Assembly (NCBI GenBank): GCA_016927685.1
Contig: JAFGMD010000024.1
Span: 7,314 to 71,313, forward strand
Source: Candidatus Falkowbacteria bacterium
Lineage (GTDB): Bacteria; Patescibacteriota; Patescibacteriia; CAIXNZ01
Direction of reading: 5' to 3'
DNA: 64,000 nt
Shown here: positions 11,066 through 63,539 of the stretch, piece after piece
Numbering within the stretch: the first letter of the stretch is position 1
Layout: each line of letters begins with the position of its first letter
Program-made: the position numbers and the translations under genes
The notes under the pieces: generated by a model
Database searches by the model: none
Told to the model about the DNA's origin: nothing
The model's input: the letters and a program-made list of their open reading frames with translations, nothing else

Positions 11066-12559
<1,494 letters not shown>

Positions 12560-14049: not shown

Positions 14050-14802
14050 TTATAATAATGGCCTGGCAAATGGATAACTGTAAATTATTGAATCGTCAAA
14101 ATATGTAATACCTAATTTATAATTTACACCCTTTAATTGAATAGCCTTTTCTTCGGTAATTGGCCTTAGCGCAGGGTTTTCATCGTTTGGATTGATATAA
14201 TACAAGGAAGTATCGGTTACGCCCTGGACTATTAGCCCCTTAAGTTCTGCGATTCCTGGCATATCTGTAAAAACTGTTTTACCATTATCCAACATTAAAA
14301 TATGATAAACTTTAGTAATTTCGGGATTAACATTAGGTAAATTTTTATAATATTCTTGTGCTGTAATTTTAACCCCGTCAATTAAGCGCTGTGCACAGAC
14401 CGGGGTGATACGAACTTTAGGTTCAAGAGTATAGCGGCCTGTCGCAAAAATTTCAGCATTTTGACATAGCTGATTGTCGTATATAGTGTTACTTATTACT
14501 GCATTTGGTTCATCATTGACTATGGAGATTGGGTTTTCAGTCATTTCTTCGGCTATTACACTAGGCAGATAAAATATTTTTTCTAAATTAGTAGCCTCAA
14601 TGAATCCGCTTAAATATGAGGGGGAATTAGGAATATCATGAAAATGATATTCTCCATTTGCTAAACCATATATTAAGCAGTCTTTTTCACATTCATGACC
14701 GCCATACTGATCAAGCTGTCCCGGACTTGCCAAAACTACTCCTGGAACAAGCAAAGCGCAAAAAATAATTGCAAAAAATAATGTTTTTTTCATATATTTC
14801 AA
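14050..14802 (-). CDS. Hypothetical secreted protein
   Basis: N-terminal signal peptide MKKTLFFAIIFCALLVPGVVLASP; no recognisable catalytic motif. Confidence 0.55.
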   Translation of the reverse strand: MKYMKKTLFFAIIFCALLVPGVVLASPGQLDQYGGHECEKDCLIYGLANGEYHFHDIPNSPSYLSGFIEATNLEKIFYLPSVIAEEMTENPISIVNDEPNAVISNTIYDNQLCQNAEIFATGRYTLEPKVRITPVCAQRLIDGVKITAQEYYKNLPNVNPEITKVYHILMLDNGKTVFTDMPGIAELKGLIVQGVTDTSLYYINPNDENPALRPITEEKAIQLKGVNYKLGITYFDDSIIYSYPFARPLL

Positions 14803-14923
14803 TTAATTTTATAGTGCTTTTAAATTATCAAATAATCGAATATGACGCAAGTGGAAATATTGAGGATAAAAAAAGAAAAAAGCCCTGTTTCACGGGACCT
14901 TTTTCTTTATTATCTAATAAATT

Positions 14924-15241
14924 TTAGATCTTTAAATCGTCAACGACATCTGTGTCAACATCTGCAGATCTGCGAGGGCGTTTTGAACCCTCTGGTTCAT
15001 TAATCTTCAGGTTAACACGTGCATTGTTTTTAGCGCCAATAATTTTTAAAAGAGTACGAATGGCGCGGGCAGTATTGCCTCTTTTGCCGATAACATAGCC
15101 GATATCGGCGGGGTTGATGTTCAGGGTCAATAAGACGCCCATTTCATCAACTTTTCTGTCAACTTTCACATCGCTGGGGTTACCAACAATGTTCTTGACA
15201 ATGTACTCAACAAATTCTACCTCTGGATGTTTTTCTGCCAT
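14924..15241 (-). CDS. KH-domain RNA-binding protein (KhpA/YlqC-like)
   Basis: GYVIGKRGNTARAIRTLLK is a KH GxxG-type motif, and the gene sits in the conserved position after rpsP. Confidence 0.75.
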   Translation of the reverse strand: MAEKHPEVEFVEYIVKNIVGNPSDVKVDRKVDEMGVLLTLNINPADIGYVIGKRGNTARAIRTLLKIIGAKNNARVNLKINEPEGSKRPRRSADVDTDVVDDLKI

Positions 15242-15437
15242 AGGTTTGAAACCTTCTCGTCTTTTAATCGTGAAACCGATTAAAAGCTTAATTTTTAAAC
15301 TGCAATCCTCAAAATCCGAGGATCATCCGTTTTTTGCGGATGATATTATTATATCATATCTGAAGTAATTGTCAACTCCGATTTATGTCTAAATTTAAAA
15401 ACGCCAGAAATAATGAGGCGTTTTTATGTATAAAGTG

Positions 15438-15803
15438 TTAAACTTTAGGTGTTGGTGCTGACTCTGCTGTAGGAGTAACGGGCACTTCTGGTTTTTTTGC
15501 CTCACCTTGTTCTTTTTTAATCTTTTCCTGTCGTTTTTTTGATATCTTAGATACTTTCTGCTTTTTGCCTTCAACCAAACCCTTGTCTACTAAAAGATTC
15601 CAAATAGTCGCGCTTGGCTCGGCACCCTTGTCTAACCAATATTTTATTCTATCAGCTTCTAATTTCAATTCCTTGGTTCGGGGATTATAAAAGCCTAAAT
15701 TTTCTAAATATGACCCCCAGGGATCTTTAGTTTTTTCGCAGACAATTAGCCTAAAAGTTGGTTCTTTTGTCTTGCCTTTTCGTGAAAGTTTAATAGCGAG
15801 CAT
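15438..15803 (-). CDS. rpsP: 30S ribosomal protein S16 with basic C-terminal extension
   Basis: MLAIKLSRKGKTKEPTFRLIV...GFYNP... is the S16 signature. Confidence 0.9.
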   Translation of the reverse strand: MLAIKLSRKGKTKEPTFRLIVCEKTKDPWGSYLENLGFYNPRTKELKLEADRIKYWLDKGAEPSATIWNLLVDKGLVEGKKQKVSKISKKRQEKIKKEQGEAKKPEVPVTPTAESAPTPKV

Positions 15804-15908
15804 AGTAAAATAAAAAAATTAACTCAGTAGTTAAAGTTATTTAATATTTATAATATTATAGTATTGAGTATAAAAAGTCAAGAATAAATCTAAGATAAGC
15901 TAAAAGTG

Positions 15909-15937
15909 TTGACAAATTAAGTTTTTTATGCTATAAT
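15909..15937 (+). promoter_or_regulatory. Consensus sigma70 promoter (TTGACA-17-TATAAT) for the 15964 gene
   Basis: -35 at 15909-15914 and -10 at 15932-15937. Confidence 0.6.
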
Positions 15938-15963
15938 TAGATGAATTTGATAATATTTAAAAT

Positions 15964-18030
15964 ATGCGAAAAATATTGTCTAAAAAAATAGATAAACTCA
16001 TTACTATTACCATAATTATGGTTTTGGGCATATTTTTATGTTTCCCAAATAATACTTTTGCAGCTACAGATGGTTACCCAAGGTTAGCCAACTATTATAT
16101 TGCTTGGGATGTTAAAACTGATATAGACATTGAAAACCTATCTAAATGGGACTTGGTGATTTTAAGCCCGCAATCAATGGAAAGAAACCCTCAGCTTATA
16201 TCTAAATTAAGACAAAAAAATAGTAAGATAAAAATTCTGGTTTATATGCCTATTCAGGAAATAACTTATGATCCTGCCCTGTTAAAAGAAACGCCTTATT
16301 GGACAGAGGTTTATAATACTGTTAACCAAAACAATTGGTGGCTAAAAAAATCTGACGGCCAACATGCCAGTTTTTGGCCGGGTAATTGGTTTATCAATGC
16401 TTCTTCAGTTGCGCCTAAAACAAATGGGCAAAATTGGGCTGATTATTTGCCAGAATTAATGTATAAAAAATATTTAAGCACAGATACTTGGGATGGTATT
16501 TTTTATGATAATGTCTGGCATGGACTTTCTTGGCTGAAACAGCCGATTGATATTAATGGCGATGGCCCTGCTGATAGCGATCAAGCTGTTGATGAGGCCT
16601 GGCGTTCTGGCTTAAGTCAAATTATTATAAAAACGCGTAATTTGGCCCCAACTAAAATGATTTTTGCTAATGCCAATACAAATTATTATAATAATATCTT
16701 AAATGGCCGCATGCATGAAAATTTCCCAACGCAAAGTGAAGGCGGCTGGAGCGGCTCGATGAGTAATTACCTAAGCGCAAATTTCGCTTATGCTCCCAAA
16801 GGGTTTATTCTTAACGCAAACACAAATAATACTGGTGAGAAAAATAATTATCAAATTTTTCGTTATAATATGACCTCTGCCTTAATGGGCGATGGCTATT
16901 TCAGTTTTGATTATGGCGATTTGGGCCATGACAGATTATGGTGGTATGACGAATATGATTATTATTTGGGGCAAGCAAAGACAGAGGCTAAAAATTTGTT
17001 GGATGCAAAATCGAAAGAAATTAAAGCTGGTGTTTGGCAACGTGATTTTGAAAATGCTTTAGCTATCGTTAATTCAACTTCAACAAATCAAAAAATTTCT
17101 TTTGAGGCAGAATATGAAAAAATTAAAGGTATTCAAGATAAAACAACTAATAATGGCGCGGTAATAAAAAATATAACTTTGTCGGCTAATGACGGCTTGA
17201 TTCTTTTGCGTCGCATTGAGGAAATAACAAATACGGCATTTTTTAACGGCTCTTTTATTCGTGTTTTTGACAATAAGGGCCTTAGTCAAAGAAACGGCTT
17301 TTTCTTATATGAAAATGAGTTCCGTGGCGGTAATGTTATTAGCAAAGAAGATATTAATAAAGATAATAAATATGAAATAATTGTAGCTGATGCCAGTAAA
17401 ATTACTATTTATGATGAAAATAAAAATGTATTAAATACTTTTTATCCTTATGGCACAAAATATAATAAGGGCATAAATTATGACTTAGCTGATTTAGACG
17501 GCGATGGTAATAAAGAAATTATTACTGGTACCTTAAGGGGATACGCTCCTTTAGTTAAAATTTTTGACAATAAGGGCAAGGTCATTAATCCTGGTTTTTA
17601 TGCTTATGCCAAATCATTTACCGGAGGCGTAAATGTATCAGTCTGCGATTTTAAAGGCAATGGAGAAAAAAGCATTGTTACTGGCGCCGGTTATATGGGC
17701 GGCTCATCCGTTAAAATATTTAATAAAAATGGCAAGTTGTTAGGCGCTGCTTATGCTTATGCCAAAACATTTAAAGGCGGTGTTTATGTAACTTGCGGTG
17801 ATATCAATGGAGATAATAAAGATGAAATTATTACTGGGGCTGGCTATAGTGGCACGCCTCAGGTGCGCATATTTAACAATAAATTCCAAGAAGTTGGAAA
17901 AAGTTTTTGGGCTTATGAACAAACCAGTAAAAACGGAGTGCGCGTTTTTGCCAATGACATAGACGGTGATGGTATTGATGAAATATTAGCCGCTACGCCT
18001 TCAACTTTTACGACTTCCATAACAAAATAA
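15964..18030 (+). CDS. Secreted protein: N-terminal TIM-barrel glycoside-hydrolase-like domain (GH114/GHL-like) plus C-terminal FG-GAP/VCBS-type repeats
   Basis: Signal peptide, then YYIAWDVKTD...WDLVILSP...KILVYMPIQE resembling the GH114-like fold (assignment uncertain). Four C-terminal repeats D(L/I)(D/N)GDG(N/I)(K/D)EIITG. Confidence 0.55.
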   Translation: MRKILSKKIDKLITITIIMVLGIFLCFPNNTFAATDGYPRLANYYIAWDVKTDIDIENLSKWDLVILSPQSMERNPQLISKLRQKNSKIKILVYMPIQEITYDPALLKETPYWTEVYNTVNQNNWWLKKSDGQHASFWPGNWFINASSVAPKTNGQNWADYLPELMYKKYLSTDTWDGIFYDNVWHGLSWLKQPIDINGDGPADSDQAVDEAWRSGLSQIIIKTRNLAPTKMIFANANTNYYNNILNGRMHENFPTQSEGGWSGSMSNYLSANFAYAPKGFILNANTNNTGEKNNYQIFRYNMTSALMGDGYFSFDYGDLGHDRLWWYDEYDYYLGQAKTEAKNLLDAKSKEIKAGVWQRDFENALAIVNSTSTNQKISFEAEYEKIKGIQDKTTNNGAVIKNITLSANDGLILLRRIEEITNTAFFNGSFIRVFDNKGLSQRNGFFLYENEFRGGNVISKEDINKDNKYEIIVADASKITIYDENKNVLNTFYPYGTKYNKGINYDLADLDGDGNKEIITGTLRGYAPLVKIFDNKGKVINPGFYAYAKSFTGGVNVSVCDFKGNGEKSIVTGAGYMGGSSVKIFNKNGKLLGAAYAYAKTFKGGVYVTCGDINGDNKDEIITGAGYSGTPQVRIFNNKFQEVGKSFWAYEQTSKNGVRVFANDIDGDGIDEILAATPSTFTTSITK

Positions 18031-26266: not shown

Positions 26267-27655
26267 ATGAATACCCAACAAATTTGGCAAGCAGTGCTTG
26301 GTGAATTAGAACTCGGCTTGTCTAAGGCTAATTTTACCACATGGTTCAAGGGCACCTTTATATTAGAGCTCGAGGAACCCAAGGTTGTAATTGGCGTACC
26401 CAATGCTTTCACCAAAAGTTGGCTGGAAAAAAAATATACTTCTGACATAATTAAGGCTCTTAGAAATATCACGGAAAGCAACTTAAGAGAAATAATATTT
26501 AAAGTTGCTTCTTTAAAAAATATACAAAAGGAATCTGCCGAATTTAATAAAGAAGAGTCTCCCATGCAAAACAGACCTGTAATTTCTGTTGACTCTATCT
26601 CCAAGCGTCAAGCTCCTGTAAATAATTTTGGGCTAAACCCAAAATATACGTTTTCAACATTTGTGGTTGGCAAGAATAATGAACTGGCCCGTGCCGCAGC
26701 CATGGCTGTAGCCGGTAACCCGGGCGTTACTTACAACCCTCTTTTTATTTATGGAGGCGCTGGATTGGGGAAAACCCATTTATTACAAGCAATAGGCCAT
26801 GATATTGCCGCCCGAAATTTAGATAAAAAGGTCCTTTATTTAACCTGTGAAAAATTTACTAATGATTTTGTGAATGCCATGACTGCCGGTCACGGACGCG
26901 CTAACGACTTTAAGGACATATATCGTAATGTTGATGTTCTGTTAATCGATGACATTCAATTTATAGCAGGTAAGGAAGGAACTCAAGAAGAATTTTTCCA
27001 TACATTTAACGTTTTACACCAAAACAATAAACAAATCGTTTTGTCTTCGGATCGTCCGCCAAAATCCATTCCAGCGCTAGAAAACCGACTTTTAACTCGT
27101 TTTGAGTGGGGGATGATAGCTGATATATCTTTACCTGATTATGAAACCAGGCTAGCTATTTTAAAAAGCAAAACGCAAGAAAAAAATTATTCTCTAGACC
27201 AAGCTGTTTTAAATTATTTAGCCAATTCTATAGCTTCTAATATCAGAGAGCTGGAAGGCGCTTTAAACCGCATCGTTGCTTATCATCAATTAAATGGTCT
27301 GCCTCCGACTCTGGAAAGCGTGAAAAAAATATTGGCCACCCTGACAACAAACTTGCAAAAACGTTCCTTGACCGCTAAAGACATCATCCAAACCGTGGCT
27401 AATTTTTATGACGTCACAATTGATGATATTACTGGCAAGTCCCGCGAAAAAAAATTAGTTGTTCCGCGACAAATAATTATGTTTCTAATGAGAAACGAGA
27501 CCAAAAGCTCTTTCCCCGCGATTGGTACGGAGTTGGGGGGGCGCGACCATACAACAGCCATGCATGCAGTGGAAAAAATTCAAAACGATTATGATAATGA
27601 TGAAAAAATACGCAGGGAAATCGAACAACTTAAACAAAGAATGTATAATTTATAA
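26267..27655 (+). CDS. dnaA: Chromosomal replication initiator DnaA
   Basis: AAA+ Walker A GGAGLGKTHLLQAIGH, sensor motifs and a C-terminal DNA-binding domain (...TGKSREKKLVVPRQIIMFLMRNETKSSFPAIG...). Confidence 0.95.
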   Translation: MNTQQIWQAVLGELELGLSKANFTTWFKGTFILELEEPKVVIGVPNAFTKSWLEKKYTSDIIKALRNITESNLREIIFKVASLKNIQKESAEFNKEESPMQNRPVISVDSISKRQAPVNNFGLNPKYTFSTFVVGKNNELARAAAMAVAGNPGVTYNPLFIYGGAGLGKTHLLQAIGHDIAARNLDKKVLYLTCEKFTNDFVNAMTAGHGRANDFKDIYRNVDVLLIDDIQFIAGKEGTQEEFFHTFNVLHQNNKQIVLSSDRPPKSIPALENRLLTRFEWGMIADISLPDYETRLAILKSKTQEKNYSLDQAVLNYLANSIASNIRELEGALNRIVAYHQLNGLPPTLESVKKILATLTTNLQKRSLTAKDIIQTVANFYDVTIDDITGKSREKKLVVPRQIIMFLMRNETKSSFPAIGTELGGRDHTTAMHAVEKIQNDYDNDEKIRREIEQLKQRMYNL

Positions 27656-27918
27656 TTACCTGTGTTTATTTTGGGGGAAAAGTATAATATTTTTGTGAAA
27701 AAGTTATGTAAATAAAAAGGATGAGGTCTGTAAATTTTTTTCTTTTCTCCTATATATTAAATTTACTCAAAACCCTTCCCCACAAAACCCACAAGCAAAT
27801 AAAATTTTTTTACACATCTTTTCAATATATATTTTTCAAAAATTCATAACAATAAACATATTTCTTCCCCTTATCCACAATACTATATAATATAACTATT
27901 TAATTTAATACAAAAATT
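27656..27918. promoter_or_regulatory. dnaA-dnaN intergenic region: probable oriC/DUE with a perfect DnaA box
   Basis: Perfect TTATCCACA at 27871-27879; partial boxes (cccacaa) at ~27776-27800; very AT-rich. Confidence 0.5.
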
Positions 27919-29082
27919 ATGAAAATAACTTGTACACAGGAAAATTTAAAACGCGGGCTTAATTCGGTTTCTCATATTGCTAGCAAAAATACTTCCCTGC
28001 CAATATTAAGCAATGTTTTAATAAAAGCAGATAAGGGTTCGGTAAGTTTAACTACCACAAATCTAGAAATTGGCATACGTTGTTTGGTGCGTGCAAAAAT
28101 ATATAAAGACGGCAGCTTTACTGTTAATTCTAAACTTTTAACGGATTTTATCAATCTATTGCCAAACGAAAAAATTGATTTGGAACTTAAAGACGATATG
28201 TTAGAAGTATGGACTGAAAACCAAGAAACAAAAATGAAGGGTGATAGCGCTGAAGATTTCCCCCTCATACCACAAGTAGTAAAAAAGTCTGCGTATACTT
28301 GCAGGGTTGAAGATTTATTAAAAGCATTTACACAGGTTTTATTTGCGGTTTCAGTTTCTGAGACTAGGCCCGAGATTTCCGGAGTATATTTTAATTTTAG
28401 TGAAAATAATTTAACCATTGCCGCTACAGATAGTTACCGATTGGCCGAAAAAAAGATAAGATTGTCCGAAAACGTGAAAGAAGAAAAGGAGGTCATAATC
28501 CCAGCCAGAACCATACAAGAACTCTTTAGAATATTATCATCATATTCTGGCTCTGCTATTGGCGAAGAAGAGCCCGTTAGTTTAGATAAAATTGATATTT
28601 ATTTTGAAGAAAACCAGGTCTTGTTTGTATTTAATAATATTGAGCTTGTTTCCAGAATTATTGAAGGGCAATATCCAAATTATAAGCAAATAATACCCAC
28701 AACACACAAAACAAAAGCAATAGTCAATATCGCAGAATTTGTCAAAGCGGCTAAAACAGCCTCTTTGTTCTCGCGCACCGGCATTTACGATGTCAATTTA
28801 GAGCTAAAAGACGGCAAAATAACAGTTTTTTCTACAAACAGCCAGATGGGAGAAAGCAAATCCAAGGTTAACGGCAAGATCGAGGGGGATAATAATAAGG
28901 TAGTGATAAATTATCGTTATTTATTAGATGGTTTGCAAAATACTGATTCAACCGATGTTATATTTGAAATGATTGATGCAGCCAACCCTTGCGTGTTGAG
29001 ACCAGCTGAAAGCTTAGACGAGAAAAAAGAAGCCATTGCGGCAGAGGATTATTTGTATATAATAATGCCCATAAAACAATAA
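27919..29082 (+). CDS. dnaN: DNA polymerase III beta sliding clamp
   Basis: 387 aa, three-domain clamp pattern (MKITCTQENLKRGLNSVSHIASKN...LPILSNVLIKA). Confidence 0.9.
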   Translation: MKITCTQENLKRGLNSVSHIASKNTSLPILSNVLIKADKGSVSLTTTNLEIGIRCLVRAKIYKDGSFTVNSKLLTDFINLLPNEKIDLELKDDMLEVWTENQETKMKGDSAEDFPLIPQVVKKSAYTCRVEDLLKAFTQVLFAVSVSETRPEISGVYFNFSENNLTIAATDSYRLAEKKIRLSENVKEEKEVIIPARTIQELFRILSSYSGSAIGEEEPVSLDKIDIYFEENQVLFVFNNIELVSRIIEGQYPNYKQIIPTTHKTKAIVNIAEFVKAAKTASLFSRTGIYDVNLELKDGKITVFSTNSQMGESKSKVNGKIEGDNNKVVINYRYLLDGLQNTDSTDVIFEMIDAANPCVLRPAESLDEKKEAIAAEDYLYIIMPIKQ

Positions 29083-41585: not shown

Positions 41586-42122
41586 ATGAAAAAGTATCTG
41601 GTGTTGGCATTTGTGGCTTTTCTGGCGGTCAATTGTGCGACTAAAAAGTCAAGCGTGTACCGTACCGAGATCAAGAGGCCAGGCGTGGTTTTGTCAACTA
41701 ATGACGTTGATATCGCAACCGAGGTTGCTAACCACAACAACAATTACGCGACTCTGCCGCCAAGTATTGACGAGGCCTTGAAGGTCAACCCGCATGCTTA
41801 TGTCAAAGTTGACGCAAATGGCGTGACCTACTATGGCGAGTCTGCCAGCGGTGGGTATATGCAGGGCATCTGGGAGAATTATACTAATTCTCCTCTAGAG
41901 GTGACCATTTTCCAGCAAAATGAGCAGATAGCTCAATTCATGGTCCCGCCAAAGAAGTATACCCGCCTTGCTTTGCTCCCCGGGTCTTATCAATCAGTTG
42001 TCAAGGCTGGTAGAGAGGTTGTCCGTTCGGAATTCCTACTCAGCCCGATCAAAGGGCGAGCCTATTCATCATTAGCTAAGGAATGGTGCGATTTTACTCA
42101 ATACAATCGCACCAAAGATTAA
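41586..42122 (+). CDS. Hypothetical secreted protein on a GC-rich islet
   Basis: RBS ataggagg; signal peptide MKKYLVLAFVAFLAVNCA; GC clearly higher than the neighbours. Confidence 0.55.
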   Translation: MKKYLVLAFVAFLAVNCATKKSSVYRTEIKRPGVVLSTNDVDIATEVANHNNNYATLPPSIDEALKVNPHAYVKVDANGVTYYGESASGGYMQGIWENYTNSPLEVTIFQQNEQIAQFMVPPKKYTRLALLPGSYQSVVKAGREVVRSEFLLSPIKGRAYSSLAKEWCDFTQYNRTKD

Positions 42123-42140
42123 TAAGCATTCAAAAAATAA

Positions 42141-42172
42141 CGAGGCTGTTGTTATGACAGCCTCGTTTTTAT
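42141..42172. terminator. Bidirectional intrinsic terminator
   Basis: acgaggctgt tgttatg acagcctcgt + TTTTT. Confidence 0.7.
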
Positions 42173-42189: not shown

Positions 42190-42615
42190 TTAGGGCGTTG
42201 TTCCGCCTTGTTCAATTCCATTGCCGCCAGGAGCAAAAATTCCGCCCTGTGAAGAGTTTATAATTACATAAAAGACAAAATTAGTAATAGCATAAGCAGA
42301 AATTATAATAACTAAGCCGATTATTGCGTAATAAATTATGTTTTTCCCTTTTTTCACCGCATCTTCCTTCCCTTGGGCTGTCATATATATAAAGCCGCCA
42401 TATATTATTAAAATAACAGCAGCAATCCCCAAAATGGTCAGGGCAGTTCTTATTAAAACAGCAGCAATTTGCTGCGGCGAAGTATAACTGCCGCCATATA
42501 CCTGTTGGCCAAAGCTATTTACATTTTCGCTGATACTAAAAGCGCCTGCTAGATTTGGCAATAAACAAAGAGAAATTAATATTAAGTAAAATAATTTGTA
42601 TAAATTTTTGTTCAT
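42190..42615 (-). CDS. Pilin-like two-helix membrane protein, paralog 1 (VirB2/TrbC-like topology)
   Basis: Signal/TM, then conserved core ILGIAAVILIIYGGFIYMTAQGKEDAVKKGKNIIYYAIIGLVIIISAYAITNF, then a Gly-rich tail. Confidence 0.6.
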   Translation of the reverse strand: MNKNLYKLFYLILISLCLLPNLAGAFSISENVNSFGQQVYGGSYTSPQQIAAVLIRTALTILGIAAVILIIYGGFIYMTAQGKEDAVKKGKNIIYYAIIGLVIIISAYAITNFVFYVIINSSQGGIFAPGGNGIEQGGTTP

Positions 42616-42636
42616 AAAAATTATTATTATAAACTA

Positions 42637-43197
42637 TTATATTGGCGGGTTTTCTGGGGCAGTCGGCGTTTGCGGCTGGTCTATTGTGTGCGTACAACCA
42701 CAGCCCGTTGCACAGCATGATTGGCTGCAACATTCTAGCTCCCCCTGATTGCGATAACTGCAGCAATAACAAGAAAAGTAATCTCTATCTTCTGGATTTT
42801 CGCATCTTTCTGTAAAAGGAGGAGGAGTAGCGCCTGGTTGCTCTAAATTTTTGGCAACAAAATAAGTAATAGAATAACCTGAAATAATAATTACCAGGCC
42901 AACTACAGCCGTAGTGATTGTTTTTTTACCGCTACTAACCTTTTTTTCATCACCCTGTGAAGTTAAATATAAATATCCTCCGTATATTAATAATATTGTA
43001 AAGATAATGCCAATGAGGGTAAAGGCCACTTTAATGATGCTTGCTGCGTATTGTTGCGGCGTTGTGGTTTCCCCATAGCCAACTTGAGTAGCAGTGCTAG
43101 TAAGCCCTTGCAGGAATTTTGAGGCCTGAATTTCTTGGCAGGACAATAAAATTCCTAAACTAATAACGATTATTAAAATGATAATTTTTTTGTTCAT
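42637..43197 (-). CDS. Pilin-like paralog 2 with an extremely Cys-rich C-terminal tail
   Basis: Core LIGIIFTILLIYGGYLYLTSQGDEKKVSSGKKTITTAVVGLVIIISGYSITYF, and tail CENPEDRDYFSCYCCSYRNQGELECCSQSCCATGCGCTHT (14 Cys in ~40 aa). Confidence 0.6.
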   Translation of the reverse strand: MNKKIIILIIVISLGILLSCQEIQASKFLQGLTSTATQVGYGETTTPQQYAASIIKVAFTLIGIIFTILLIYGGYLYLTSQGDEKKVSSGKKTITTAVVGLVIIISGYSITYFVAKNLEQPGATPPPFTERCENPEDRDYFSCYCCSYRNQGELECCSQSCCATGCGCTHTIDQPQTPTAPENPPI

Positions 43198-43601
43198 ATT
43201 TGTACTTCTATTGACGGCTCAGTTGTTTCTTGTGGTTCAAGGAGGGAAGCCACAAAATACGAAATTGAATAAGCAGTTACAATGATGGCCAAGCCAATTA
43301 TTGCGCTAATTATTATTTTTTTCGCCTTATTGACATTTTCCTCATTTCCTCTGGCTGTCATCCAGACATAGCCTCCATAAATAACTAGAATAAAAAATAC
43401 TACTCCAACTAGGCCTAAAATTGCTTGTATGATCCTGACTACAATTTCAGTCCACCCTATGCCAGTTTCTAAGCCTGCTTCGCCGGCTGATGTATTAATA
43501 TATTGACCTGAATTTTGAATATTCAAGGCCAGGCAGGGGAGCGCTGACATGCCAAGGAGAACTATTAGTAAAAATATTATAAAAGTAATTTTTTTTCGCA
43601 T
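43194..43601 (-). CDS. Pilin-like paralog 3
   Basis: Core ILGLVGVVFFILVIYGGYVWMTARGNEENVNKAKKIIISAIIGLAIIVTAYSISYF; 4-nt overlap with paralog 2. Confidence 0.6.
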   Translation of the reverse strand: MRKKITFIIFLLIVLLGMSALPCLALNIQNSGQYINTSAGEAGLETGIGWTEIVVRIIQAILGLVGVVFFILVIYGGYVWMTARGNEENVNKAKKIIISAIIGLAIIVTAYSISYFVASLLEPQETTEPSIEVQI

Positions 43602-43609
43602 AGTAATGA

Positions 43610-44026
43610 TTAAATTTGATAAATTTGGTCCGAGTCCTGTTCTGGCGTTTCCGGTTCAATGGCCGAGGAAATAAAATATGTTATTGAATAAGCCGCTGCC
43701 ACTATTAATAAGCCTATTACAGCGTAAATAATAATTTTTTTAGCTTTTTGAACTTTTTCTGTAGTCCCTGCCGCAGTCATATATAAAAAACCTCCATAGA
43801 TAATTAATACTACAAACATGGCACCAACAAGACCCAAAAATAAGTTAATTACCATCGCTACTACTTCGGCAAACTCCGCTTTTTGCAAACCTGTTTCGGT
43901 TTGTGTCTGCTGGGTAAATTCATTAATATTTTGCAAGCTATAGGCATTGAGCAGAGAAGCAGAAAATAAAAAAATACCAAACAGAATGGTTGTTAAAAGA
44001 AAAAATTTTAAATATTTACTAGGCAT
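43610..44026 (-). CDS. Pilin-like paralog 4
   Basis: Core FLGLVGAMFVVLIIYGGFLYMTAAGTTEKVQKAKKIIIYAVIGLLIVAAAYSITYF. Confidence 0.6.
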   Translation of the reverse strand: MPSKYLKFFLLTTILFGIFLFSASLLNAYSLQNINEFTQQTQTETGLQKAEFAEVVAMVINLFLGLVGAMFVVLIIYGGFLYMTAAGTTEKVQKAKKIIIYAVIGLLIVAAAYSITYFISSAIEPETPEQDSDQIYQI

Positions 44027-44039
44027 GTTTAAGATTTAT

Positions 44040-44414
44040 TTATTGCCCGCCAACTGCCTGAAAAATAAGTGCTGTTATGGCATATGCGGCCCCCAGAACA
44101 ATAGCGCCGATAATTGACCACTTAATTACCTCCTTGCCCTTATCGACTTTTTTAGAATCACCAGCCGCACTCATTATTAAAATTCCGCCGTATACCATTA
44201 AAAATAAGAAAAGCGAACCAGCAATGGCCAAGGCAGCGCCGGCAATGCGGCCCAGAAATACTGGTGCATCAATCATAAGGCTTTCGCCTAGCCCTGCCTC
44301 TTTAGCCGTGGTTGATAAACCATGATCTCCTTGAGCAGAAACAGTATTAGCGCCATAAATAGAAAATAATAAAATAAAAATTTTTGTAATACTTGTTATA
44401 TATTTTTTAATCAT
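44040..44414 (-). CDS. Pilin-like paralog 5 (C-terminus ends GGQ)
   Basis: Core LAIAGSLFLFLMVYGGILIMSAAGDSKKVDKGKEVIKWSIIGAIVLGAAYAITAL. Confidence 0.6.
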   Translation of the reverse strand: MIKKYITSITKIFILLFSIYGANTVSAQGDHGLSTTAKEAGLGESLMIDAPVFLGRIAGAALAIAGSLFLFLMVYGGILIMSAAGDSKKVDKGKEVIKWSIIGAIVLGAAYAITALIFQAVGGQ

Positions 44415-44426
44415 ATTGACTATTAA

Positions 44427-44460
44427 ATATTAAGGGCAGACGATTGCCTGCCCTTAATAT
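44427..44460 (-). terminator. Strong hairpin between paralogs 6 and 5 (possible internal terminator/attenuator)
   Basis: 13-bp perfect inverted repeat atattaagggcag / ctgcccttaatat with an 8-nt loop; the downstream U-run is weak (aauauuu). Confidence 0.4.
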
Positions 44461-44467
44461 TCCTTAA

Positions 44468-44842
44468 TTACTGTTGAGATGTCGCATTAATAATATTGGT
44501 CAAAACGAAATTGGCAATGGCATATGCCGATAAGATAATCACAAGACCTATTACGCCCTGAAAGATAAGCTTCTTTGCAGTTTTTACGTTTTCTTCATTA
44601 CCCATGGCAGTCATCCATTTAAAGCCGCCTACTAATATGATAACCACGGCAACTACGCCTAAAAGGCCCATGGCCACATTAATTATTGTGGCAATAGTTG
44701 TTCTGATGTCGCCTGTGGGTAAACCGGTTGAAGTAACATAGCTTAAGCCCACATCTAAAGTTGTTTGCGCTGCGACTAATTCTGGCAAAAGAATTAGGGC
44801 TAAAAGTCCTAATATCATGCCAATTTTCATCCCTTTTTTCAT
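44468..44842 (-). CDS. Pilin-like paralog 6
   Basis: Core AMGLLGVVAVVIILVGGFKWMTAMGNEENVKTAKKLIFQGVIGLVIILSAYAIANF. Confidence 0.6.
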   Translation of the reverse strand: MKKGMKIGMILGLLALILLPELVAAQTTLDVGLSYVTSTGLPTGDIRTTIATIINVAMGLLGVVAVVIILVGGFKWMTAMGNEENVKTAKKLIFQGVIGLVIILSAYAIANFVLTNIINATSQQ

Positions 44843-45000
44843 AATTGGATCCTTCTTAGCTTAGTTAATTCACTAAGCAATAAGATTAATTATTTAAATA
44901 TATTTATCCGTTTAAAAGCGGTTTTTAAAAAAACATTATCTTTATAATATTATACTATTTTAGCTTTCAAACCGCAATATTTAAATATTTTTTATTATAT

Positions 45001-45372
45001 TTATGTGCCACTCTGTGTAATACCCGTTATAATATAATTTACAAAAATATAGCTGCCAAATATTATTAAAAGTCCGATTACAGACCAAATTAGTATGTCT
45101 TTGCCCTTTTTAACCATATCTGGGTTGCCATGGGAAGTCAGCATAAACATGCCGCCATAGATAAACATAATAAAGGCAATTGAGCCAACTATAGCCAAAA
45201 CAGCTTTTATGATTCGCCCTATTAATTTTTGCACTCCGGCCTCTCCCGGCTCAAGCTTAATAGGCGAAATATCACTAATACTTACTTGACCTAATGCGGG
45301 AATATAATTAAGAAATATTCCTATAGTGGCCAATAATATTGTTATTAAGATAAGAAATCTAATTTTTTTCAT
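45001..45372 (-). CDS. Pilin-like paralog 7
   Basis: Core VLAIVGSIAFIMFIYGGMFMLTSHGNPDMVKKGKDILIWSVIGLLIIFGSYIFVNY. Confidence 0.6.
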   Translation of the reverse strand: MKKIRFLILITILLATIGIFLNYIPALGQVSISDISPIKLEPGEAGVQKLIGRIIKAVLAIVGSIAFIMFIYGGMFMLTSHGNPDMVKKGKDILIWSVIGLLIIFGSYIFVNYIITGITQSGT

Positions 45373-45388
45373 AAAAATTTATATTAAT

Positions 45389-45853
45389 TTATTTACATTC
45401 TCCGGTTTGGACGTCACATTTTTTGCCCGCTGGGCAATTAGCATCGCTTTTACACGGGCAGATGAGCTTTGATTCAATCCATTGCTGGGGGTCTGAAATT
45501 TCACCGCCTGAAACAACAACCAATATAAAGGCAATAATAAAATATGCCAAAAAAATAATGGCCATCCCAATTAAGGCATTAATTATTATATCTTTACCCT
45601 TTTTAACTTGATTTGGGTTACCACCAGAAATCAGCATTGTAAAACCGCCATAAATAAAATATAGCAGCAACAAACTTCCAACTATAGCTAAAATGAATTT
45701 GCCAATATTTATCGCCACATTGACCATATCACAAAGTGTGCAATCTCCAGTCGCAGTGCAAGGTGGTAAGATTTGGGCATTTGCGCATTTTATTCCAAAA
45801 AACAATATAAAAATTATTACGAATAAGCTGAGGATGTATTTTTTGTTTAACAT
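45389..45853 (-). CDS. Pilin-like paralog 8 with Cys-rich N- and C-terminal exposed segments
   Basis: Core ILAIVGSLLLLYFIYGGFTMLISGGNPNQVKKGKDIIINALIGMAIIFLAYFIIAF; N-terminal CTATGDCTLCD and C-terminal CPCKSDANCPAGKKCDVQTGECK. Confidence 0.6.
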   Translation of the reverse strand: MLNKKYILSLFVIIFILFFGIKCANAQILPPCTATGDCTLCDMVNVAINIGKFILAIVGSLLLLYFIYGGFTMLISGGNPNQVKKGKDIIINALIGMAIIFLAYFIIAFILVVVSGGEISDPQQWIESKLICPCKSDANCPAGKKCDVQTGECK

Positions 45854-45858
45854 ATAAT

Positions 45859-47223
45859 CTATTTATAGGTTTGATTAATTTTTTGCACTGCCAGAGAGAC
45901 AATTTCATTGGTTTTTAATATGCCCTCTAAATTACCAGATATCATTTCTTCTAAAATTTTATCGCTTGCCTCTGCATCTTTGCCTTTATACCAGCTCCTT
46001 GACGTAAGAATCTGGTCAGCGAATGGTGCTAATTCCAAATCATCTGTCTGTGTAATTATCAAATTTCTTAGAGCTATAGGTAATCGTGATTTTTGCAAAT
46101 ATGTTTTATTCATTTCTTCATTCGTTGTCATAAATATTATAAAATCCCACGCCTCATTTTGATTTTTACTTTTTTTAGATACTGTCTCTGTCCAGTAATT
46201 CGCAAAATTTATTGGCGTACCCACTTGAGGCATTTTCGCAATTTCAAAATTTAATTTTGGAGCACGCGCTTTAATAGTAGAAAGATTATAAGCATAACCA
46301 AAGAAAAAGGCTGTTTTACCGCTCATAAAGCTTTCCAATGAATTTGGCAAATTTTCATTCCAAGTATAAGATTGTGTCGCTGGAGAGGCAAAGCCATTAT
46401 AAAAGTTTAAAGCTTCAGCAGCTGGGGGGAGCTCTCTTTGATAGCCAGTTGGCTTTTGGTTAAATGTTGCATAACCATTAGAATCTGTCATGGGGGTACC
46501 ATTTTGCATCATGAGCAAGCTGATTATATCAGGAGAGCGCGCAACATTAGTGGCCGTTCCAATGGCCGCTCCTGATTGGATAATATTGCCTTTTGAATCT
46601 TGCTTTGTTAATTTAATGACGTCTTCTCTGAATTCATCCCAGTTAGTCGGCGGATTAGAAATACCAGCATTATTCAATAGGTCCCGATTATAATATAAGG
46701 CTAATGTATCAATACTTAACGGTAGGCCGTAAATTTGATCATTAATGACCTGATTATCGTAAATAACATCAGGAAATAGAGCTTTAACATCTCTTAGTGT
46801 TAAAGTTTTTTTTGTGCGCATTTCAGTATAAGTTTCTTTCTTGATGGTACCCTTAGTTACTTGATATGCAATTGTTACAGTCGCTGGTAAGGGAGAGATA
46901 AGACTTTGATATTCCCTCATCCAAGTAGTATTAATTGAAAAAATATCAGGGCCTCTATCTTCTGCTAAAGCACGCACTAATTGTTTTTCGTATTCATCAT
47001 AAGTAAAGTTTCTGTAATTAATAACAATATGCGGATGCTCTTTCTGATAGGCACTTATTAAATCCTGGACATCTGAACTTTCCTCAAATACTTTCCAGTA
47101 TTCAAGAGTAACTGGTTGTGGTTTGCCTAAAGTTAAACCAGCGGGCGGTCCTCCGCATTTGAAGCCACTAGTAACCAATAAAGCAGCTAGTAAGAAAAAA
47201 ATTATTATTTTGGTTGTTTTCAT
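45859..47223 (-). CDS. Extracellular solute-binding protein (sugar ABC transporter SBP family 1-like); likely start at internal Met (MKTTKIII...)
   Basis: Signal peptide after the internal start, ~450-aa periplasmic-binding-protein-like body. No permease or ATPase genes adjacent (orphan SBP). Confidence 0.6.
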   Translation of the reverse strand: MKTTKIIIFFLLAALLVTSGFKCGGPPAGLTLGKPQPVTLEYWKVFEESSDVQDLISAYQKEHPHIVINYRNFTYDEYEKQLVRALAEDRGPDIFSINTTWMREYQSLISPLPATVTIAYQVTKGTIKKETYTEMRTKKTLTLRDVKALFPDVIYDNQVINDQIYGLPLSIDTLALYYNRDLLNNAGISNPPTNWDEFREDVIKLTKQDSKGNIIQSGAAIGTATNVARSPDIISLLMMQNGTPMTDSNGYATFNQKPTGYQRELPPAAEALNFYNGFASPATQSYTWNENLPNSLESFMSGKTAFFFGYAYNLSTIKARAPKLNFEIAKMPQVGTPINFANYWTETVSKKSKNQNEAWDFIIFMTTNEEMNKTYLQKSRLPIALRNLIITQTDDLELAPFADQILTSRSWYKGKDAEASDKILEEMISGNLEGILKTNEIVSLAVQKINQTYK

Positions 47224-47227: not shown

Positions 47228-48094
47228 TTATTTAAGCTGTTTAAGATATTTTTTAAAGTCAATCGCTAAATCTTTGCGTTGCAGCGCCAAATCAACGTTA
47301 GCTTTAAGCCAGCCGATTTTTGAACCAGCATCATAATATTTGCCATCTACCAGACAGGCATAGATAGGTCTTTTTTTGGATAAATTAAAGATAGCATCAA
47401 CTAACCATAATTCTCCGCCTTGCCCTATTTTTGTGCTAGCCAATGTCTCGAATATATCTGGTGTTAAGATATAGCCTCCTAATACGCCAATGCGACTCGG
47501 TGCTTTTTCCGGCCCGGGTTTTTCTACTAGTTTTTTTATTTGATAAATATTTTTTTCTATTTTTACGCCATCAATCACGCCATACTTTTTAGTCCCCTCA
47601 TCATCAATGGCCATGGCAGTTAGAACAGGATCGCCATATTTATAATAAACATCCATTAGCTGTTTTAATCTGTTTTTTTTGGGACTGATAAAAAATTCAT
47701 CTCCCCAGATAACAGCAAATGGTTCGTTGCCAATTACTTTTGCGGCATTAAGCACTGGTGTGCCATTGCCATAAGGCCCCTTTTGTCTAATATAAATAAA
47801 ATTTGCCAAATCTGCTATTTTTTTTATTTCCTGCCGCAATCCTTCCTTACCTTGTTTTTTTAACCAATTTTGTAATTCATAATTATAATCAAAGTGATCT
47901 TCAATAGCCCTTTTTGATGCCCCGGTTACCAGAATAATATCCTCTATGCCCGATTCAACCGCCTCCTCTACGATATATTGTATAACAGGCTTATCAATAA
48001 TTGGCAGCATTTCTTTTGGCATGGCTTTGGTAGCCGGTAAAAAACGAGTGCCAAAGCCTGCTACTGGGATAACTGCTTTTTTAATTTTTGACAT
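47228..48094 (-). CDS. galU: UTP--glucose-1-phosphate uridylyltransferase
   Basis: MSKIKKAVIPVAGFGTRFLPATKAMPKEMLPIIDKPVIQYIVEEAVESGIEDIILVTG; probable start at the internal Met (ORF-track start 48178 is likely too long). Confidence 0.85.
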   Translation of the reverse strand: MSKIKKAVIPVAGFGTRFLPATKAMPKEMLPIIDKPVIQYIVEEAVESGIEDIILVTGASKRAIEDHFDYNYELQNWLKKQGKEGLRQEIKKIADLANFIYIRQKGPYGNGTPVLNAAKVIGNEPFAVIWGDEFFISPKKNRLKQLMDVYYKYGDPVLTAMAIDDEGTKKYGVIDGVKIEKNIYQIKKLVEKPGPEKAPSRIGVLGGYILTPDIFETLASTKIGQGGELWLVDAIFNLSKKRPIYACLVDGKYYDAGSKIGWLKANVDLALQRKDLAIDFKKYLKQLK

Positions 48095-48219
48095 ATCAAA
48101 AATAACTAAAAATAGGTATTTCTTTAATTTAATAATATCACAAAATAAGCCAAAATAAAACAAATTTACCCCAAGCATTTATCTTGGGGTAAATTTTATT
48201 TAAATATGGAGCTTTGTTG

Positions 48220-61245: not shown

Positions 61246-62874
61246 TTATTTCTTCTTGGGTTCGTCAGCCTTGGGCCTTGAACCGTCTTCGGTCTTGGCC
61301 GGCTGGCCGGTTTTGTCTCCGACAGCTTCCTTGCTCATGGCTGCCAGCTTGTTGCCGAGCAGTTCACTCGCTTTTTTCAGGATTTCGGTCGGATCGACCA
61401 GGCCGCTGGCTTTGAGCTGCTGCACAAAGTCAAAGAACATTTTGGGAACGATGGAGGCCACACGGTTCATCGCTCCGTCTCCGCCGCTGCCAGTGTCCCA
61501 GACAGTGAGGTTGTCGATGCTGCCGAGTGAAGAGGCTAGTGAGGAGAATATTTTTTCGGCAACTTCGCCGCCTGCTTCGCCAATGGCTTTAATGACTTCG
61601 GGTGATTTTTCCATGAGGAAGAGCAGTTGGCCGGCCTGATTCAGTTTGGTCAGGGCCTCGGCCAGTTTTTCCTTGCCTTCGGCTTCGGCCAGTAGCTGGG
61701 CCTTGGTGCCATCGGCGATGGCGACCAACTTGGCCTTTTCCGCGTCTGCGGCTGCTTGGCCTTGTTGCCTGATTTTGGCAGCATCGCCTTCGGCTTCCAG
61801 AACAGCTGCACTCTTTTTGGCCTCGGCCAATTTGATCGCGGCCTGCGCTTCACCATCGGCCTTGAGAATGGCCGCCTGTCGTTGTGCTTCGGCATTGATG
61901 ACTGCGGCTTTTTGGTTTGCCTCGGCTTCTCTGATGGTCGTGGCTTCCAACTGTTTTTGCCGACGAGCCGCTTCTTTTTCCTGGACCAAAGTAGCGCCTT
62001 CGGTCTCAGCCGCAAGAGTGGCCTGCTCAGCAGTTTTCACGTCCTTTTCAGCCAAGGCCTTGGCTTTGGGCCCTGCCTGGGCAGCCAATGCTTCCTGGGC
62101 CTGAACTTCTGCCGCGTAAGCGGCCTTTTTGACTGACAGGTTTTTGTTGGCTTCGGCGATTTTTCTTTCGTTTTCGGCCGCAATCTCCGCTGCCTCTCTC
62201 ATGGCTTCAGATGTCTTTTTCTTGGCTTCGGCTTCGGCCTGGGCTTTGCCGATGGCCGCGTCACGCTGGACTTCGGCGGTTCTCTTTTGGCCCAGGGCGT
62301 TCAAATAGTTGTGAGCGTCGGAGATGCTTTTGATGCCGATAGAATCGGCATCCAAGCCCATTTTCTGCAGATCCACCAGGGACTCGCTGGTTATCTTTTC
62401 GGCAAAGGTTTTACGATCCGAGTTGAGTTCTTCAATAGTCATGGTGCCGACAATGGCGCGCAAATGCGCTTCCAAAGTCTGCAGAGCCGTGTTTTGGATT
62501 TCCTGAGGCCTGCCCAGGAATCGTTCAACGGCGTTGATTACTGAGGTATCATCGCTCTTGATCTTGATATTGGCGATCGCATCAATGCTGACTGGCACGC
62601 CGTCTTTGTTGTAGGCGTCAGTGACTCTGACATCGATCGTCATCAATTCCAGGCTCAGGTATTGGGTCTGTTCGATGATAGGCCAGACAAAGGTAGCACC
62701 GCCGCGAACAATCCTGTAGCCGACCTCCTTGTCTCCCAGTTTGCGTTTGCGTCCAGTGATGATAGCCACCTTATCTGGCGGAACCTTGATGTAGCGTTTG
62801 GACCACACCAGAAAACCGCCAACAAAGGCGAGTGCCAGAACGACAATAATGACTGGAATAATGAACGCTCCCAT
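61246..62874 (-). CDS. Flotillin-like SPFH/band-7 protein (YqiK/FloT-like) with a long Ala/Glu/Lys-rich coiled coil
   Basis: N-terminal TM, SPFH domain (KVPPDKVAIITGRK...VTDAYNKDGVPVSIDAIANIKI), ~250-aa EA-rich coiled coil, C-terminal region. Confidence 0.85.
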   Translation of the reverse strand: MGAFIIPVIIVVLALAFVGGFLVWSKRYIKVPPDKVAIITGRKRKLGDKEVGYRIVRGGATFVWPIIEQTQYLSLELMTIDVRVTDAYNKDGVPVSIDAIANIKIKSDDTSVINAVERFLGRPQEIQNTALQTLEAHLRAIVGTMTIEELNSDRKTFAEKITSESLVDLQKMGLDADSIGIKSISDAHNYLNALGQKRTAEVQRDAAIGKAQAEAEAKKKTSEAMREAAEIAAENERKIAEANKNLSVKKAAYAAEVQAQEALAAQAGPKAKALAEKDVKTAEQATLAAETEGATLVQEKEAARRQKQLEATTIREAEANQKAAVINAEAQRQAAILKADGEAQAAIKLAEAKKSAAVLEAEGDAAKIRQQGQAAADAEKAKLVAIADGTKAQLLAEAEGKEKLAEALTKLNQAGQLLFLMEKSPEVIKAIGEAGGEVAEKIFSSLASSLGSIDNLTVWDTGSGGDGAMNRVASIVPKMFFDFVQQLKASGLVDPTEILKKASELLGNKLAAMSKEAVGDKTGQPAKTEDGSRPKADEPKKK

Positions 62875-62897
62875 TTTTTCTCCTCCTTCTTTTCGGG

Positions 62898-63539
62898 TTA
62901 ATTTTGGCCTAGACGCGTGACTATCACGGTCTGCCCCATGGCCTTGGTGACTTTGACAGTGTTGCCTTCCAGAATTTCAGATCCGTCCTCGGATTGGGCC
63001 AGGTAAGTGATGGTGCCGGTATGAGTGGTGGCCTGAATTTGGCCGGCTTCGTTTTTCGGAATTTTCACAATAACCATAACTTCCTTGCCCACAAGATCAT
63101 TGGCCGAGATGTTAGCAGAGGCCTGTTGCTTGGCCAAAAAGTTGACAAAGGCATACATAAGAACGGCCATAAGAAAACCGGCCAGAATGCCAATTCCGCT
63201 TGAGGCAAATACGCCCATTTTTAAATAGCTGCAGATTGCACCGACCAGGCCAAAGCCTGCGACAAATGACATTATGATTCTGAATGAAAAGAAGCCGGGT
63301 GCGCGTAAGCCGGCCATATCCGTATGGTCGCCTCCCGAGTCTGGATGATCGGCTCCATGGTCGACGTGCAGGTCATGATCGGGATGATCAAAATCATGAT
63401 CAATGCCGAACGCGTCTCCTAATTCTCCAAGAAAGAGAGAAAAGAGACTGATACCTGCGGCGACCAATCCAATGGTCAAAAATACGCCAAAGGTGAATAT
63501 TTTGTCAAGGTGCGCTAAAAGTCCGGTAAGCCATTCCAT
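62898..63539 (-). CDS. NfeD-like membrane protein (YqiJ/YuaF-like flotillin partner) with a His/Asp-rich loop
   Basis: TM helices, DHDFDHPDHDLHVDHGADHPDSGGDH loop and a C-terminal OB-fold-like beta domain; sits immediately upstream of the flotillin gene. Confidence 0.75.
   Translation of the reverse strand: MEWLTGLLAHLDKIFTFGVFLTIGLVAAGISLFSLFLGELGDAFGIDHDFDHPDHDLHVDHGADHPDSGGDHTDMAGLRAPGFFSFRIIMSFVAGFGLVGAICSYLKMGVFASSGIGILAGFLMAVLMYAFVNFLAKQQASANISANDLVGKEVMVIVKIPKNEAGQIQATTHTGTITYLAQSEDGSEILEGNTVKVTKAMGQTVIVTRLGQN

Follow-up and report, generated by a model that had tools for sequence, protein, structure and literature searches.

What does a row of eight small, diverged membrane-protein genes build in a bacterium when no secretion gene stands beside it? 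The question is raised by a 64-kb stretch of DNA (the window, part of the 74,372-bp contig JAFGMD010000024.1) from a Candidatus Falkowbacteria bacterium metagenome-assembled genome (MAG), which we read together with short Logan fragments of 7-8 kb. Eight open reading frames (ORFs) on its minus strand, between 42190 and 45853, encode pilin-like proteins of 123-186 amino acids, here lettered A-H in operon order, that are identical to JW977_03530-03545 (for example, MBN1326021.1). Falkowbacteria are placed in class ABY1 of the Patescibacteria, and an earlier note on this DNA, made from the letters alone, had rightly supposed a host of the candidate phyla radiation (CPR) type. Our preferred answer, to which we give a probability of roughly 0.6, is that the locus represents, in class ABY1, the VirB2-like pilin array known from Patescibacteria, with differentiated gene roles, and that its products would be polymerised by a VirB4 machine encoded elsewhere.

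A large part of uncultured bacterial diversity belongs to the Patescibacteria, which live attached to other microbes, and few systems besides type IV secretion systems (T4SSs) with their pilin series have been shown to be essential for this attached lifestyle. The locus represents no new kind of system; what its comparison with relatives adds is a structure that can be tested. It points to the paralog that may form the shaft, to the A and B types as likely carriers of adhesive domains, and to a solute-binding protein (SBP) and galU as members of the module in one large class.

Family and topology of the eight proteins

The array and the hairpin at its end comprise the following features.

45389-45853, minus strand: pilin-like paralog A, 154 amino acids, PF18895 score 35.6 bits, Cys-rich on both predicted extracellular sides
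45001-45372, minus strand: pilin-like paralog B, 123 amino acids, PF18895 score 42.9 bits, in second position, starting 16 nt after A
44468-44842, minus strand: pilin-like paralog C, 124 amino acids, no Cys, PF18895 score 42.9 bits, TrbC E-value 5.2e-05, candidate major subunit
44040-44414, minus strand: pilin-like paralog D, 124 amino acids, PF18895 score 35.3 bits
43610-44026, minus strand: pilin-like paralog E, 138 amino acids, PF18895 score 41.7 bits
43194-43601, minus strand: pilin-like paralog F, 135 amino acids, PF18895 score 40.5 bits
42637-43197, minus strand: pilin-like paralog G, 186 amino acids, PF18895 score 32.9 bits, Pro- and Cys-rich C-terminal tail, 4-nt overlap with F
42190-42615, minus strand: pilin-like paralog H, 141 amino acids, PF18895 score 38.2 bits, Gly-rich tail, final gene of the array
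42139-42167, no single strand: bidirectional intrinsic-terminator-like hairpin with an 11-13 bp stem, 6 G-C pairs and a T-run on both strands, between H and the convergent gene for a 178-amino-acid secreted protein

The ORFs and their hydropathy segments agree with the earlier note, which had described eight same-strand genes of one architecture at these positions. In all eight proteins, a hydrophobic N-terminal signal-like segment closes with an AxA-type site; it is followed by a variable stretch, two hydrophobic helices around a K/R-rich loop, and a variable tail. The consensus core that had been proposed matches the columns that we find invariant among the paralogs (G62, G72, G73, G81, V86, K90, G99 and Y107). 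The 4-nt overlap of F and G is real, as is the 158-nt spacer at 44843-45000, and the hairpin at 42139-42167 probably marks the operon end, judging from its stem and T-runs.

The guess that these are VirB2/TrbC-like proteins held up when it was checked with hidden Markov models (HMMs). All eight exceed the gathering score of PF18895 (T4SS_pilin; 26.6 bits), with 32.9-42.9 bits, and the precomputed PF18895 annotation of these proteins in a public collection makes the same assignment; an array of eight proteins, every one above the gathering score, lies far beyond chance expectation. Five of the eight also match PF04956 (TrbC/VirB2; gathering score 27.9 bits) below threshold, with E-values of 5e-05 to 0.02, and the best of them, C at 23.8 bits, does not reach the cut-off. 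Against the NCBIfam model NF045849, which describes a pilin-like conjugal transfer protein of Mycoplasma integrative and conjugative elements (ICEs) and has a cut-off of 40 bits, C scores 41.9 bits and is the sole paralog above it; the remaining paralogs reach 11.6-35.8 bits, and all but one of the eight match at E <= 0.005. In the protein database, relatives fall into 83,105 representative clusters at E <= 0.001 that share the invariant Gly, Tyr and Lys positions. Taken together, these comparisons support the assignment of the proteins to the VirB2-like pilin family PF18895.

The predicted topology is consistent with this assignment. By hydropathy, all eight have the signal peptide, two hydrophobic helices and short basic loop expected of VirB2/TrbC-type pilins, and the AlphaFold2 model of C consists of a signal helix followed by a helical hairpin (residues 46-78 and 83-122), with a predicted local distance difference test (pLDDT) score of 78. 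A regular-expression search of all eight proteins returned no G|F..E prepilin motif, in line with the earlier note, and none matches N_methyl (PF07963), which supports, at the level of sequence, the view that they are not type IV (PilA) pilins. Like the VirB2/TrbC pilins of diderm T4SSs (PF04956; for example, Agrobacterium VirB2 and RP4 TrbC), they are small, with a long signal peptide, two hydrophobic helices, a short basic loop and both termini predicted to face outward. They differ in that their matches are sub-threshold (23.8 versus 27.9 bits), the host is monoderm, no virB genes are adjacent and there are eight paralogs rather than one. The closest curated family outside the CPR is the Mbov_0395/MMCAP2_0565 protein of Mycoplasma ICEs (NF045849), and both hosts have a single membrane, but as an 'equivalog' the model stands for one ICE gene, all paralogs except C score under its cut-off, and there is no ICE, relaxase or type IV coupling protein (T4CP) context here.

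A rival reading is convergence, in which unrelated two-helix proteins (holin-like proteins or small transporter subunits) share no more than their topology. Sub-threshold Pfam matches to Phage_holin_3_6, DctQ, FixQ and DUF898, some JGI annotations that label relatives as 'TRAP small permease', and a non-specific fold search all lean that way. These matches, however, lie under the curated cut-offs, whereas PF18895 is above its own in eight of eight, and tens of thousands of family members have the same invariant Gly, Tyr and Lys. The confident match to an unrelated family that would have overturned the pilin assignment did not occur, and we regard convergence as highly improbable.

Arrays of this type are already known, contrary to the novelty implied by the earlier note. 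Quinonero-Coronel et al. (2025, Microb Genom 11:001409; PMC12102498) used PF04956 and PF18895 to survey 3,035 Patescibacteria assemblies and counted 441 arrays, each of 2-11 pilin genes, in 383 of them; mean paralog identity was 25 % and the maximum 54 %. Transposon sequencing of Candidatus Southlakia epibionticum showed that the pilin series SEML1_0006-0019, within its T4SS cluster, is essential (Wang et al. 2023, Cell; PMC10633639); a 2025 review singles these pilins out as the only ones of VirB2-like type in a monoderm T4SS. The source MAG is not among the entries in the accessible part of the survey's supplement. Eight tandem PF18895 genes in a Patescibacteria genome make a pilin array in the published sense (at least two in tandem, or with one non-pilin gene between), and the divergence of the paralogs fits the published range: amino-acid identity between them is 25-52 % (local alignment), and the longest exact nucleotide word common to any two is 13 nt, which bears out the moderate identity and lack of long identical tracts noted before. 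The array thus resembles the published ones in family (PF18895 with traces of PF04956), phylum, gene number (8, within 2-11), low paralog identity, chromosomal location and lack of a relaxase.

A conserved layout with galU and a solute-binding protein

We compared the array with related loci, of which 80 were obtained from species-representative genomes via C orthologs, three via pilin homologs on long contigs and three via SBP homologs only; their genes were typed by local HMM and BLAST searches. The comparison draws in the two genes upstream of A, together with a hairpin.

47228-48178, minus strand: galU-type UTP-glucose-1-phosphate uridylyltransferase (PF00483 NTP_transferase, 4.1e-25), first gene of the conserved module; the ATG near 48094 is its probable true start
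48162-48196: terminator-like hairpin, upstream of the probable galU start ATG
45859-47223, minus strand: family-1 (CUT1-type sugar) extracellular SBP, 454 amino acids, with an N-terminal signal/anchor (PF01547/PF13416)

The same layout, galU-SBP-A-B-C-(F/E/G/H)n, is conserved in the 83 related loci and in all three SBP-selected loci. The order of subtypes is fixed: the SBP is followed by A, which always comes first, then by B (at times duplicated), then by C, and then by F, E, G and H types in variable number, with F the most often expanded (211 F-type genes). At least three pilin genes are present in 75 of the 83 loci, most often 8 and at most 13, which supplies the comparison of copy number that the earlier note had proposed. 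A-type orthologs (median 228 amino acids, median 9 Cys) and B-type orthologs (median 186 amino acids, median 6 Cys) carry the pilin core at the C terminus, whereas C-type orthologs are short and Cys-free.

Conservation of the paralog order across a whole class agrees with the proposal of an old, maintained diversification. It bears equally on the idea of a phase-variable filament, in which the genes would be cassettes for antigenic or phase variation, with one pilin expressed at a time through recombination or an invertible promoter, as proposed for the VirB2 paralogs of Bartonella and Anaplasma. Many divergent paralogs with variable exposed ends would suit such cassettes, and the survey itself raised the analogy (PMC12102498). 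Against this, shared tracts of at most 13 nt give no basis for gene conversion, a search of the locus found no credible inverted repeats flanking a promoter, the A-B-C order is kept across the class, and the genes are packed as an operon with one terminator at its end. We therefore consider phase variation very unlikely and set aside that part of the earlier note.

The earlier note was right to list the secreted protein, the SBP_bac_1 protein and galU as neighbours of the array; its description of the SBP as an orphan fails in the light of the conserved coupling of the SBP and galU to the array. In the window, 5 nt separate the SBP stop codon from the start of A; in relatives, the distance to the first pilin start is typically -4 to +10 nt, and the SBP is flanked by galU and pilins. 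Among the 63 related loci in which the upstream side is visible, the SBP adjoins the array in 55 and lies slightly farther off in about five more, and galU is within five genes upstream in 48. The reciprocal test gave the same picture, with a pilin gene directly downstream of the SBP in three of the three SBP-selected loci. SBP orthologs are 49-83 % identical, a conservation above that of any pilin, and the named ones are all from Patescibacteria. On these gene-order data, the SBP and galU are conserved, tightly coupled members of the locus and not incidental neighbours. The SBP matches solved sugar-binding proteins (for example, 3uor at 3.8e-18); no ABC permease or ATPase partner was found for it among the scanned ORFs of the window, which does not fit a CUT1 importer.

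Neither the survey (PMC12102498) nor a full-text literature search yielded a mention of the linkage between SBP and array. PMC12102498 and PMC10633639 mention neither the galU-SBP head, nor the fixed order of A, B and C, nor a single paralog marked out by promoter and hairpin (see below), and the galU-SBP and ordered-subtype layout of class ABY1 seems to be unreported.

In three related loci (L090 at 11377-17196, and also L070 and L083), five or six unrelated genes (HTH, methyltransferase, GT2 and GT87-like) lie between the SBP-A head and the C-led rest, and because of these insertions we consider that the two parts can be uncoupled. In about 25 Magasanikbacteria-type loci (for example, L007 at 2077-5873), three conserved genes for proteins of about 600, 205 and 460 amino acids lie ahead of galU-SBP-pilins; the ~600-amino-acid protein has a type IV prepilin N_methyl motif and CarboxypepD_reg, and so appears type-IV-pilin-like beside the VirB2-like genes there. 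Many of the MAGs with a Patescibacteria-type locus (L010, L012, L015 and others) are titled 'uncultured Gammaproteobacteria bacterium', and some 'Binatia', 'Nanoarchaeia' or 'Acutalibacteraceae'; they are probably mislabelled.

Some relatives have the pilin core fused to Ig-like or very large ectodomains. In L074 (5712-16903), adjacent genes encode a 642-amino-acid protein (a T4SS_pilin core with a Big_5 Ig-like domain) and a 3077-amino-acid protein with an N-terminal pilin core, and there the pilin hairpin seems to serve giant surface proteins as their anchor. Database proteins with a repeated pilin core contain 2-17 repeats; P0241, P0248, P0270 and P0325 have 8-17 tandem cores per polypeptide, in up to 1775 amino acids. 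Such multi-repeat proteins may be genuine precursors of several pilins; otherwise they are artefacts of gene calling, caused for example by a wrong genetic code.

Paralog C and its expression signals

The eight genes are not equivalents; C alone carries the marks of a major subunit. Two features around the gene are of interest here, along with a site within the first of them.

44843-45000, minus strand: spacer upstream of C, 158 nt, with a promoter-like site, a leader of ~100 nt and the Shine-Dalgarno sequence AAGAAGGA
44972-44977 and 44949-44954, minus strand: promoter-like site in this spacer, TTGCGG and TATAAT, respectively, separated by 17 nt
44425-44462, minus strand: stem-loop directly 3' of the C stop codon, with a 17-bp stem, a folding free energy of -25.6 kcal/mol and a z-score of -8.6

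Among the nine genes compared, the Shine-Dalgarno sequence AAGAAGGA before C is the only clear one in the array. The arrangement TTGC..-17-TATAAT, with an AAAGGA Shine-Dalgarno sequence, is retained in the relatives L006 and L045, and it is this conservation, not a hexamer scan, that underlies our promoter call: a sigma-70 hexamer scan gave 35 sites versus 27 +/- 5 in shuffled sequences, no enrichment, and did not list the TTGCGG site (three of six positions match). RNAalifold found no consensus structure in the leader upstream of C, so a conserved 5' hairpin is not claimed.

On the 3' side, a hairpin had been noted before and is real, although its size had been understated (a 17-bp stem at 44425-44462, not 13 bp at 44427-44460); it could be a partial terminator or a 3' stabiliser of the mRNA. 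In 80 loci, the 70 nt after C orthologs have a median minimum free energy of -25 kcal/mol, and 86 % are at or below -12 kcal/mol; the corresponding 70 nt of other pilin genes have a median of -8.6 kcal/mol, or -11.9 kcal/mol where a gap of at least 45 nt comes next. The presence of the hairpin is conserved among loci and its sequence differs. In protein sequence, C shares 69 % identity with the ortholog in L006, the closest collinear relative, versus 43-56 % for the other seven paralogs, and many database relatives of C are 60-83 % identical to it.

C is probably the major (abundant, shaft-forming) subunit, because it is the best conserved paralog, lacks Cys, and has a promoter-like site of its own, the only clear ribosome-binding site and a recurring 3' hairpin. 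Clusters for pap/fim pili and type IV minor pilins have an abundant subunit gene with its own expression signals and a stem-loop after it, together with several low-abundance specialised paralogs. The parallel is one of analogy only, since the folds and assembly machines are unrelated, and stoichiometry in the present array is deduced from sequence signals.

Secretion machinery and the proposed mechanism

The earlier note had reported no secretion machinery near the array, and the wider search agrees with it. Pfam scans of essentially every ORF in the window returned no VirB4, VirD4/T4CP, VirB6, VirB3, VirB11, relaxase or sortase. VirB4 was found within 10 kb of the array in none of about 86 related loci, and clustering of pilin genes with virB4, virB3/prgI, virB6 or trsD (~20 coding sequences) was seen neither in the window nor in the 10-kb flanks of these relatives. 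Whereas the Southlakia array lies inside its T4SS cluster, the present array and its ABY1 relatives thus have no T4SS gene within 10 kb; the one exception near T4SS genes is a single-pilin locus, L087, two genes from a T4CP. Walker A motifs occur in 7 of 147 large unannotated ORFs of related loci. Every Walker A ORF of at least 400 amino acids in these loci encodes a T4CP (one locus, L087), DnaX, ChlI-like, SMC, CysS or AAA_14 protein, and VirB4 is not among them. Other candidates for machinery near single pilins in relatives were likewise rejected: 765-amino-acid ORFs in L075 and L080 are secreted proteins without a Pfam match, a 769-amino-acid ORF in L086 is a spurious high-GC ORF, and ORFs of ~800 amino acids encode pyruvate phosphate dikinase. 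The sole VirB1-like candidate in the window is a 192-amino-acid protein with an SLT/SLT_3 lytic-transglycosylase domain (5160-5738, minus strand), near recA/ftsK and ~37 kb from the array, and it is weak evidence because SLT domains are common.

A lack of nearby machinery is a known and frequent situation. In the survey, pilin genes were near virB4 in 1,135 of 1,948 assemblies and detached in about 40 % (PMC12102498). Published prevalence puts VirB4 in 2,417 of 3,035 Patescibacteria assemblies (80 %), and a VirB4 machine in the source genome is for that reason likely, prevalence being no proof. In ABY1, T4SS genes sit by comF, recG and radA.

From the family membership, topology features, operon structure, conserved synteny and subtype order, and conserved signals around C, we infer the rest of a mechanism as follows. 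Each product would be exported by the Sec pathway and reside in the membrane as a helical hairpin, with its basic loop in the cytoplasm and its N-terminal variable segment and C-terminal tail facing outward. C would be the abundant subunit that forms the shaft, as the conserved signals around its gene suggest. A and B, presumably co-transcribed and coupled with galU and the SBP, may be specialised minor subunits, possibly an initiator, tip or adhesin, because their relatives have large Cys-rich ectodomains; the SBP may be a glycan-recognising partner. D-H, whose number and exposed ends vary by lineage, would serve as alternative or decorating subunits and would vary the surface that the filament presents to the host. 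A monoderm-type (MPF-FATA-derived) VirB4/VirB3/VirB6 machine elsewhere on the chromosome, as the literature suggests, would extract the subunits from the membrane and polymerise them. The product would be a surface filament or conduit through which the epibiotic cell attaches to, or exchanges material with, its host.

Glycans may enter this scheme in a further way. Conjugative pili are co-polymers of pilin and lipid. Glycosyltransferase or glycolipid-synthase genes adjoin many arrays, and it is a matter of speculation that they and the galU link mean glycosylation of the pilins or a glycolipid partner. Directly after many arrays (L007 at 13717-14808 and equivalents), a convergent ~360-amino-acid MGDG_synth/GT28 glycolipid-synthase-like gene is followed by an isolated pilin gene and then by rpsO-pnp.

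Several points weigh against a VirB4-polymerised pilus. With no T4SS ATPase or channel gene in the window or near its relatives, the case for a T4SS connection depends on the protein family and on Patescibacteria of other classes. To our knowledge, a pilus of PF18895 proteins has been seen in no organism. Fold searches did not discriminate, a hairpin pilin being inseparable from other helical hairpins; a profile search of PDB sequences gave no related solved structure, and tblastn against 72,556 plasmids gave no related plasmid-borne gene. The 3077-amino-acid fusion and the presence of up to 17 pilin repeats in one protein fit a simple pilus shaft poorly. Finally, the conservation of C is partly biased, as most related loci were fetched via C orthologs, but the bias-free loci still show the higher conservation or signature of C: besides the collinear L006, the three SBP-selected loci have free energies of -24.0, -23.5 and -24.6 kcal/mol after C versus -2 to -17 kcal/mol elsewhere, and a Shine-Dalgarno sequence before C only.

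A serious alternative, which we nonetheless rate as unlikely, is an envelope system independent of any T4SS. The hairpins would then be membrane anchors or oligomers that work with the SBP and glycan genes to display ectodomains, or for SBP-fed uptake or sensing, and no VirB4-driven pilus would form. The strict adjacency of the SBP and A, often overlapping or a few nucleotides apart, speaks for such a system, as do an SBP conservation that exceeds any pilin's, the lack of VirB4 within 10 kb, the fusions to Ig-like or very large ectodomains with the 2-17-repeat proteins, and the surrounding envelope genes. On the upstream side, the array's neighbours are SpoIID, a flippase, an Amidase_2 protein, galU and the SBP_bac_1 protein, and on the other side the GC-rich 178-amino-acid secreted protein, DUF2079, GT2 and a polytopic 534-amino-acid protein. 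It is opposed by the passage of all eight proteins in a curated pilin model and their similarity to TrbC/VirB2 and ICE pilins, by family members in Saccharimonadia that lie within a T4SS cluster and are essential with it, and by the fact that pilins distant from virB4 are common in virB4-bearing genomes; permease-like features are none beyond the weak sub-threshold matches to DctQ and DUF898.

A doubtful further option is that the galU-SBP-ordered pilin locus encodes a distinct, self-contained surface organelle, a VirB2-like filament working without VirB4 or loosely with it, that has one major and several minor subunits and a co-opted SBP at its tip or base for recognition of host glycans or for feeding a conduit. 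Such an organelle, if real, would be the first conjugative-type pilus coupled to an SBP and would give epibiotic CPR bacteria a new means of docking on their hosts. The lineage is suited to testing the dependence of pilins on VirB4 by phylogenetic profiling, and the predictions can guide proteomics, cryo-electron tomography and structure prediction.

The remainder of the window is ordinary chromosome, with a 16S rRNA gene, six tRNAs, ftsK, recA, tig, dnaA-dnaN (26267-29082), PBP1a, ruvABC-related and envelope genes; the array starts about 14.5 kb from dnaA. The gene for the 178-amino-acid secreted protein (41586-42122, plus strand), convergent with the array and without a Pfam match, has a GC content of 0.475 versus 0.36 for the window, and it occupies the same position in L006, which indicates that it is no recent insertion. 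After the 16S rRNA gene come tRNA-Ile, -Phe, -Pro and -Gly (10007-12565, minus strand), with no 23S rRNA in the window. A 23S-rRNA-intervening-sequence-type protein is encoded at 13578-13949, and the rRNA operon seems to be unlinked. A Logan contig that overlaps the window's end (L003) carries, ~0.1-3.5 kb past position 64000, a bAvd gene (PF22296, a diversity-generating retroelement (DGR) accessory protein) and a gene for a 693-amino-acid lamin-tail-domain protein, which suggest a DGR cassette ~18 kb from the pilin array, with no sign of the pilins as its target. Near the same end, a Band_7/flotillin-like gene (542 amino acids) and an NfeD-like gene (61246-63539, minus strand) have a GC content of 0.53-0.54 versus 0.36 for the window and may form a horizontally acquired islet.

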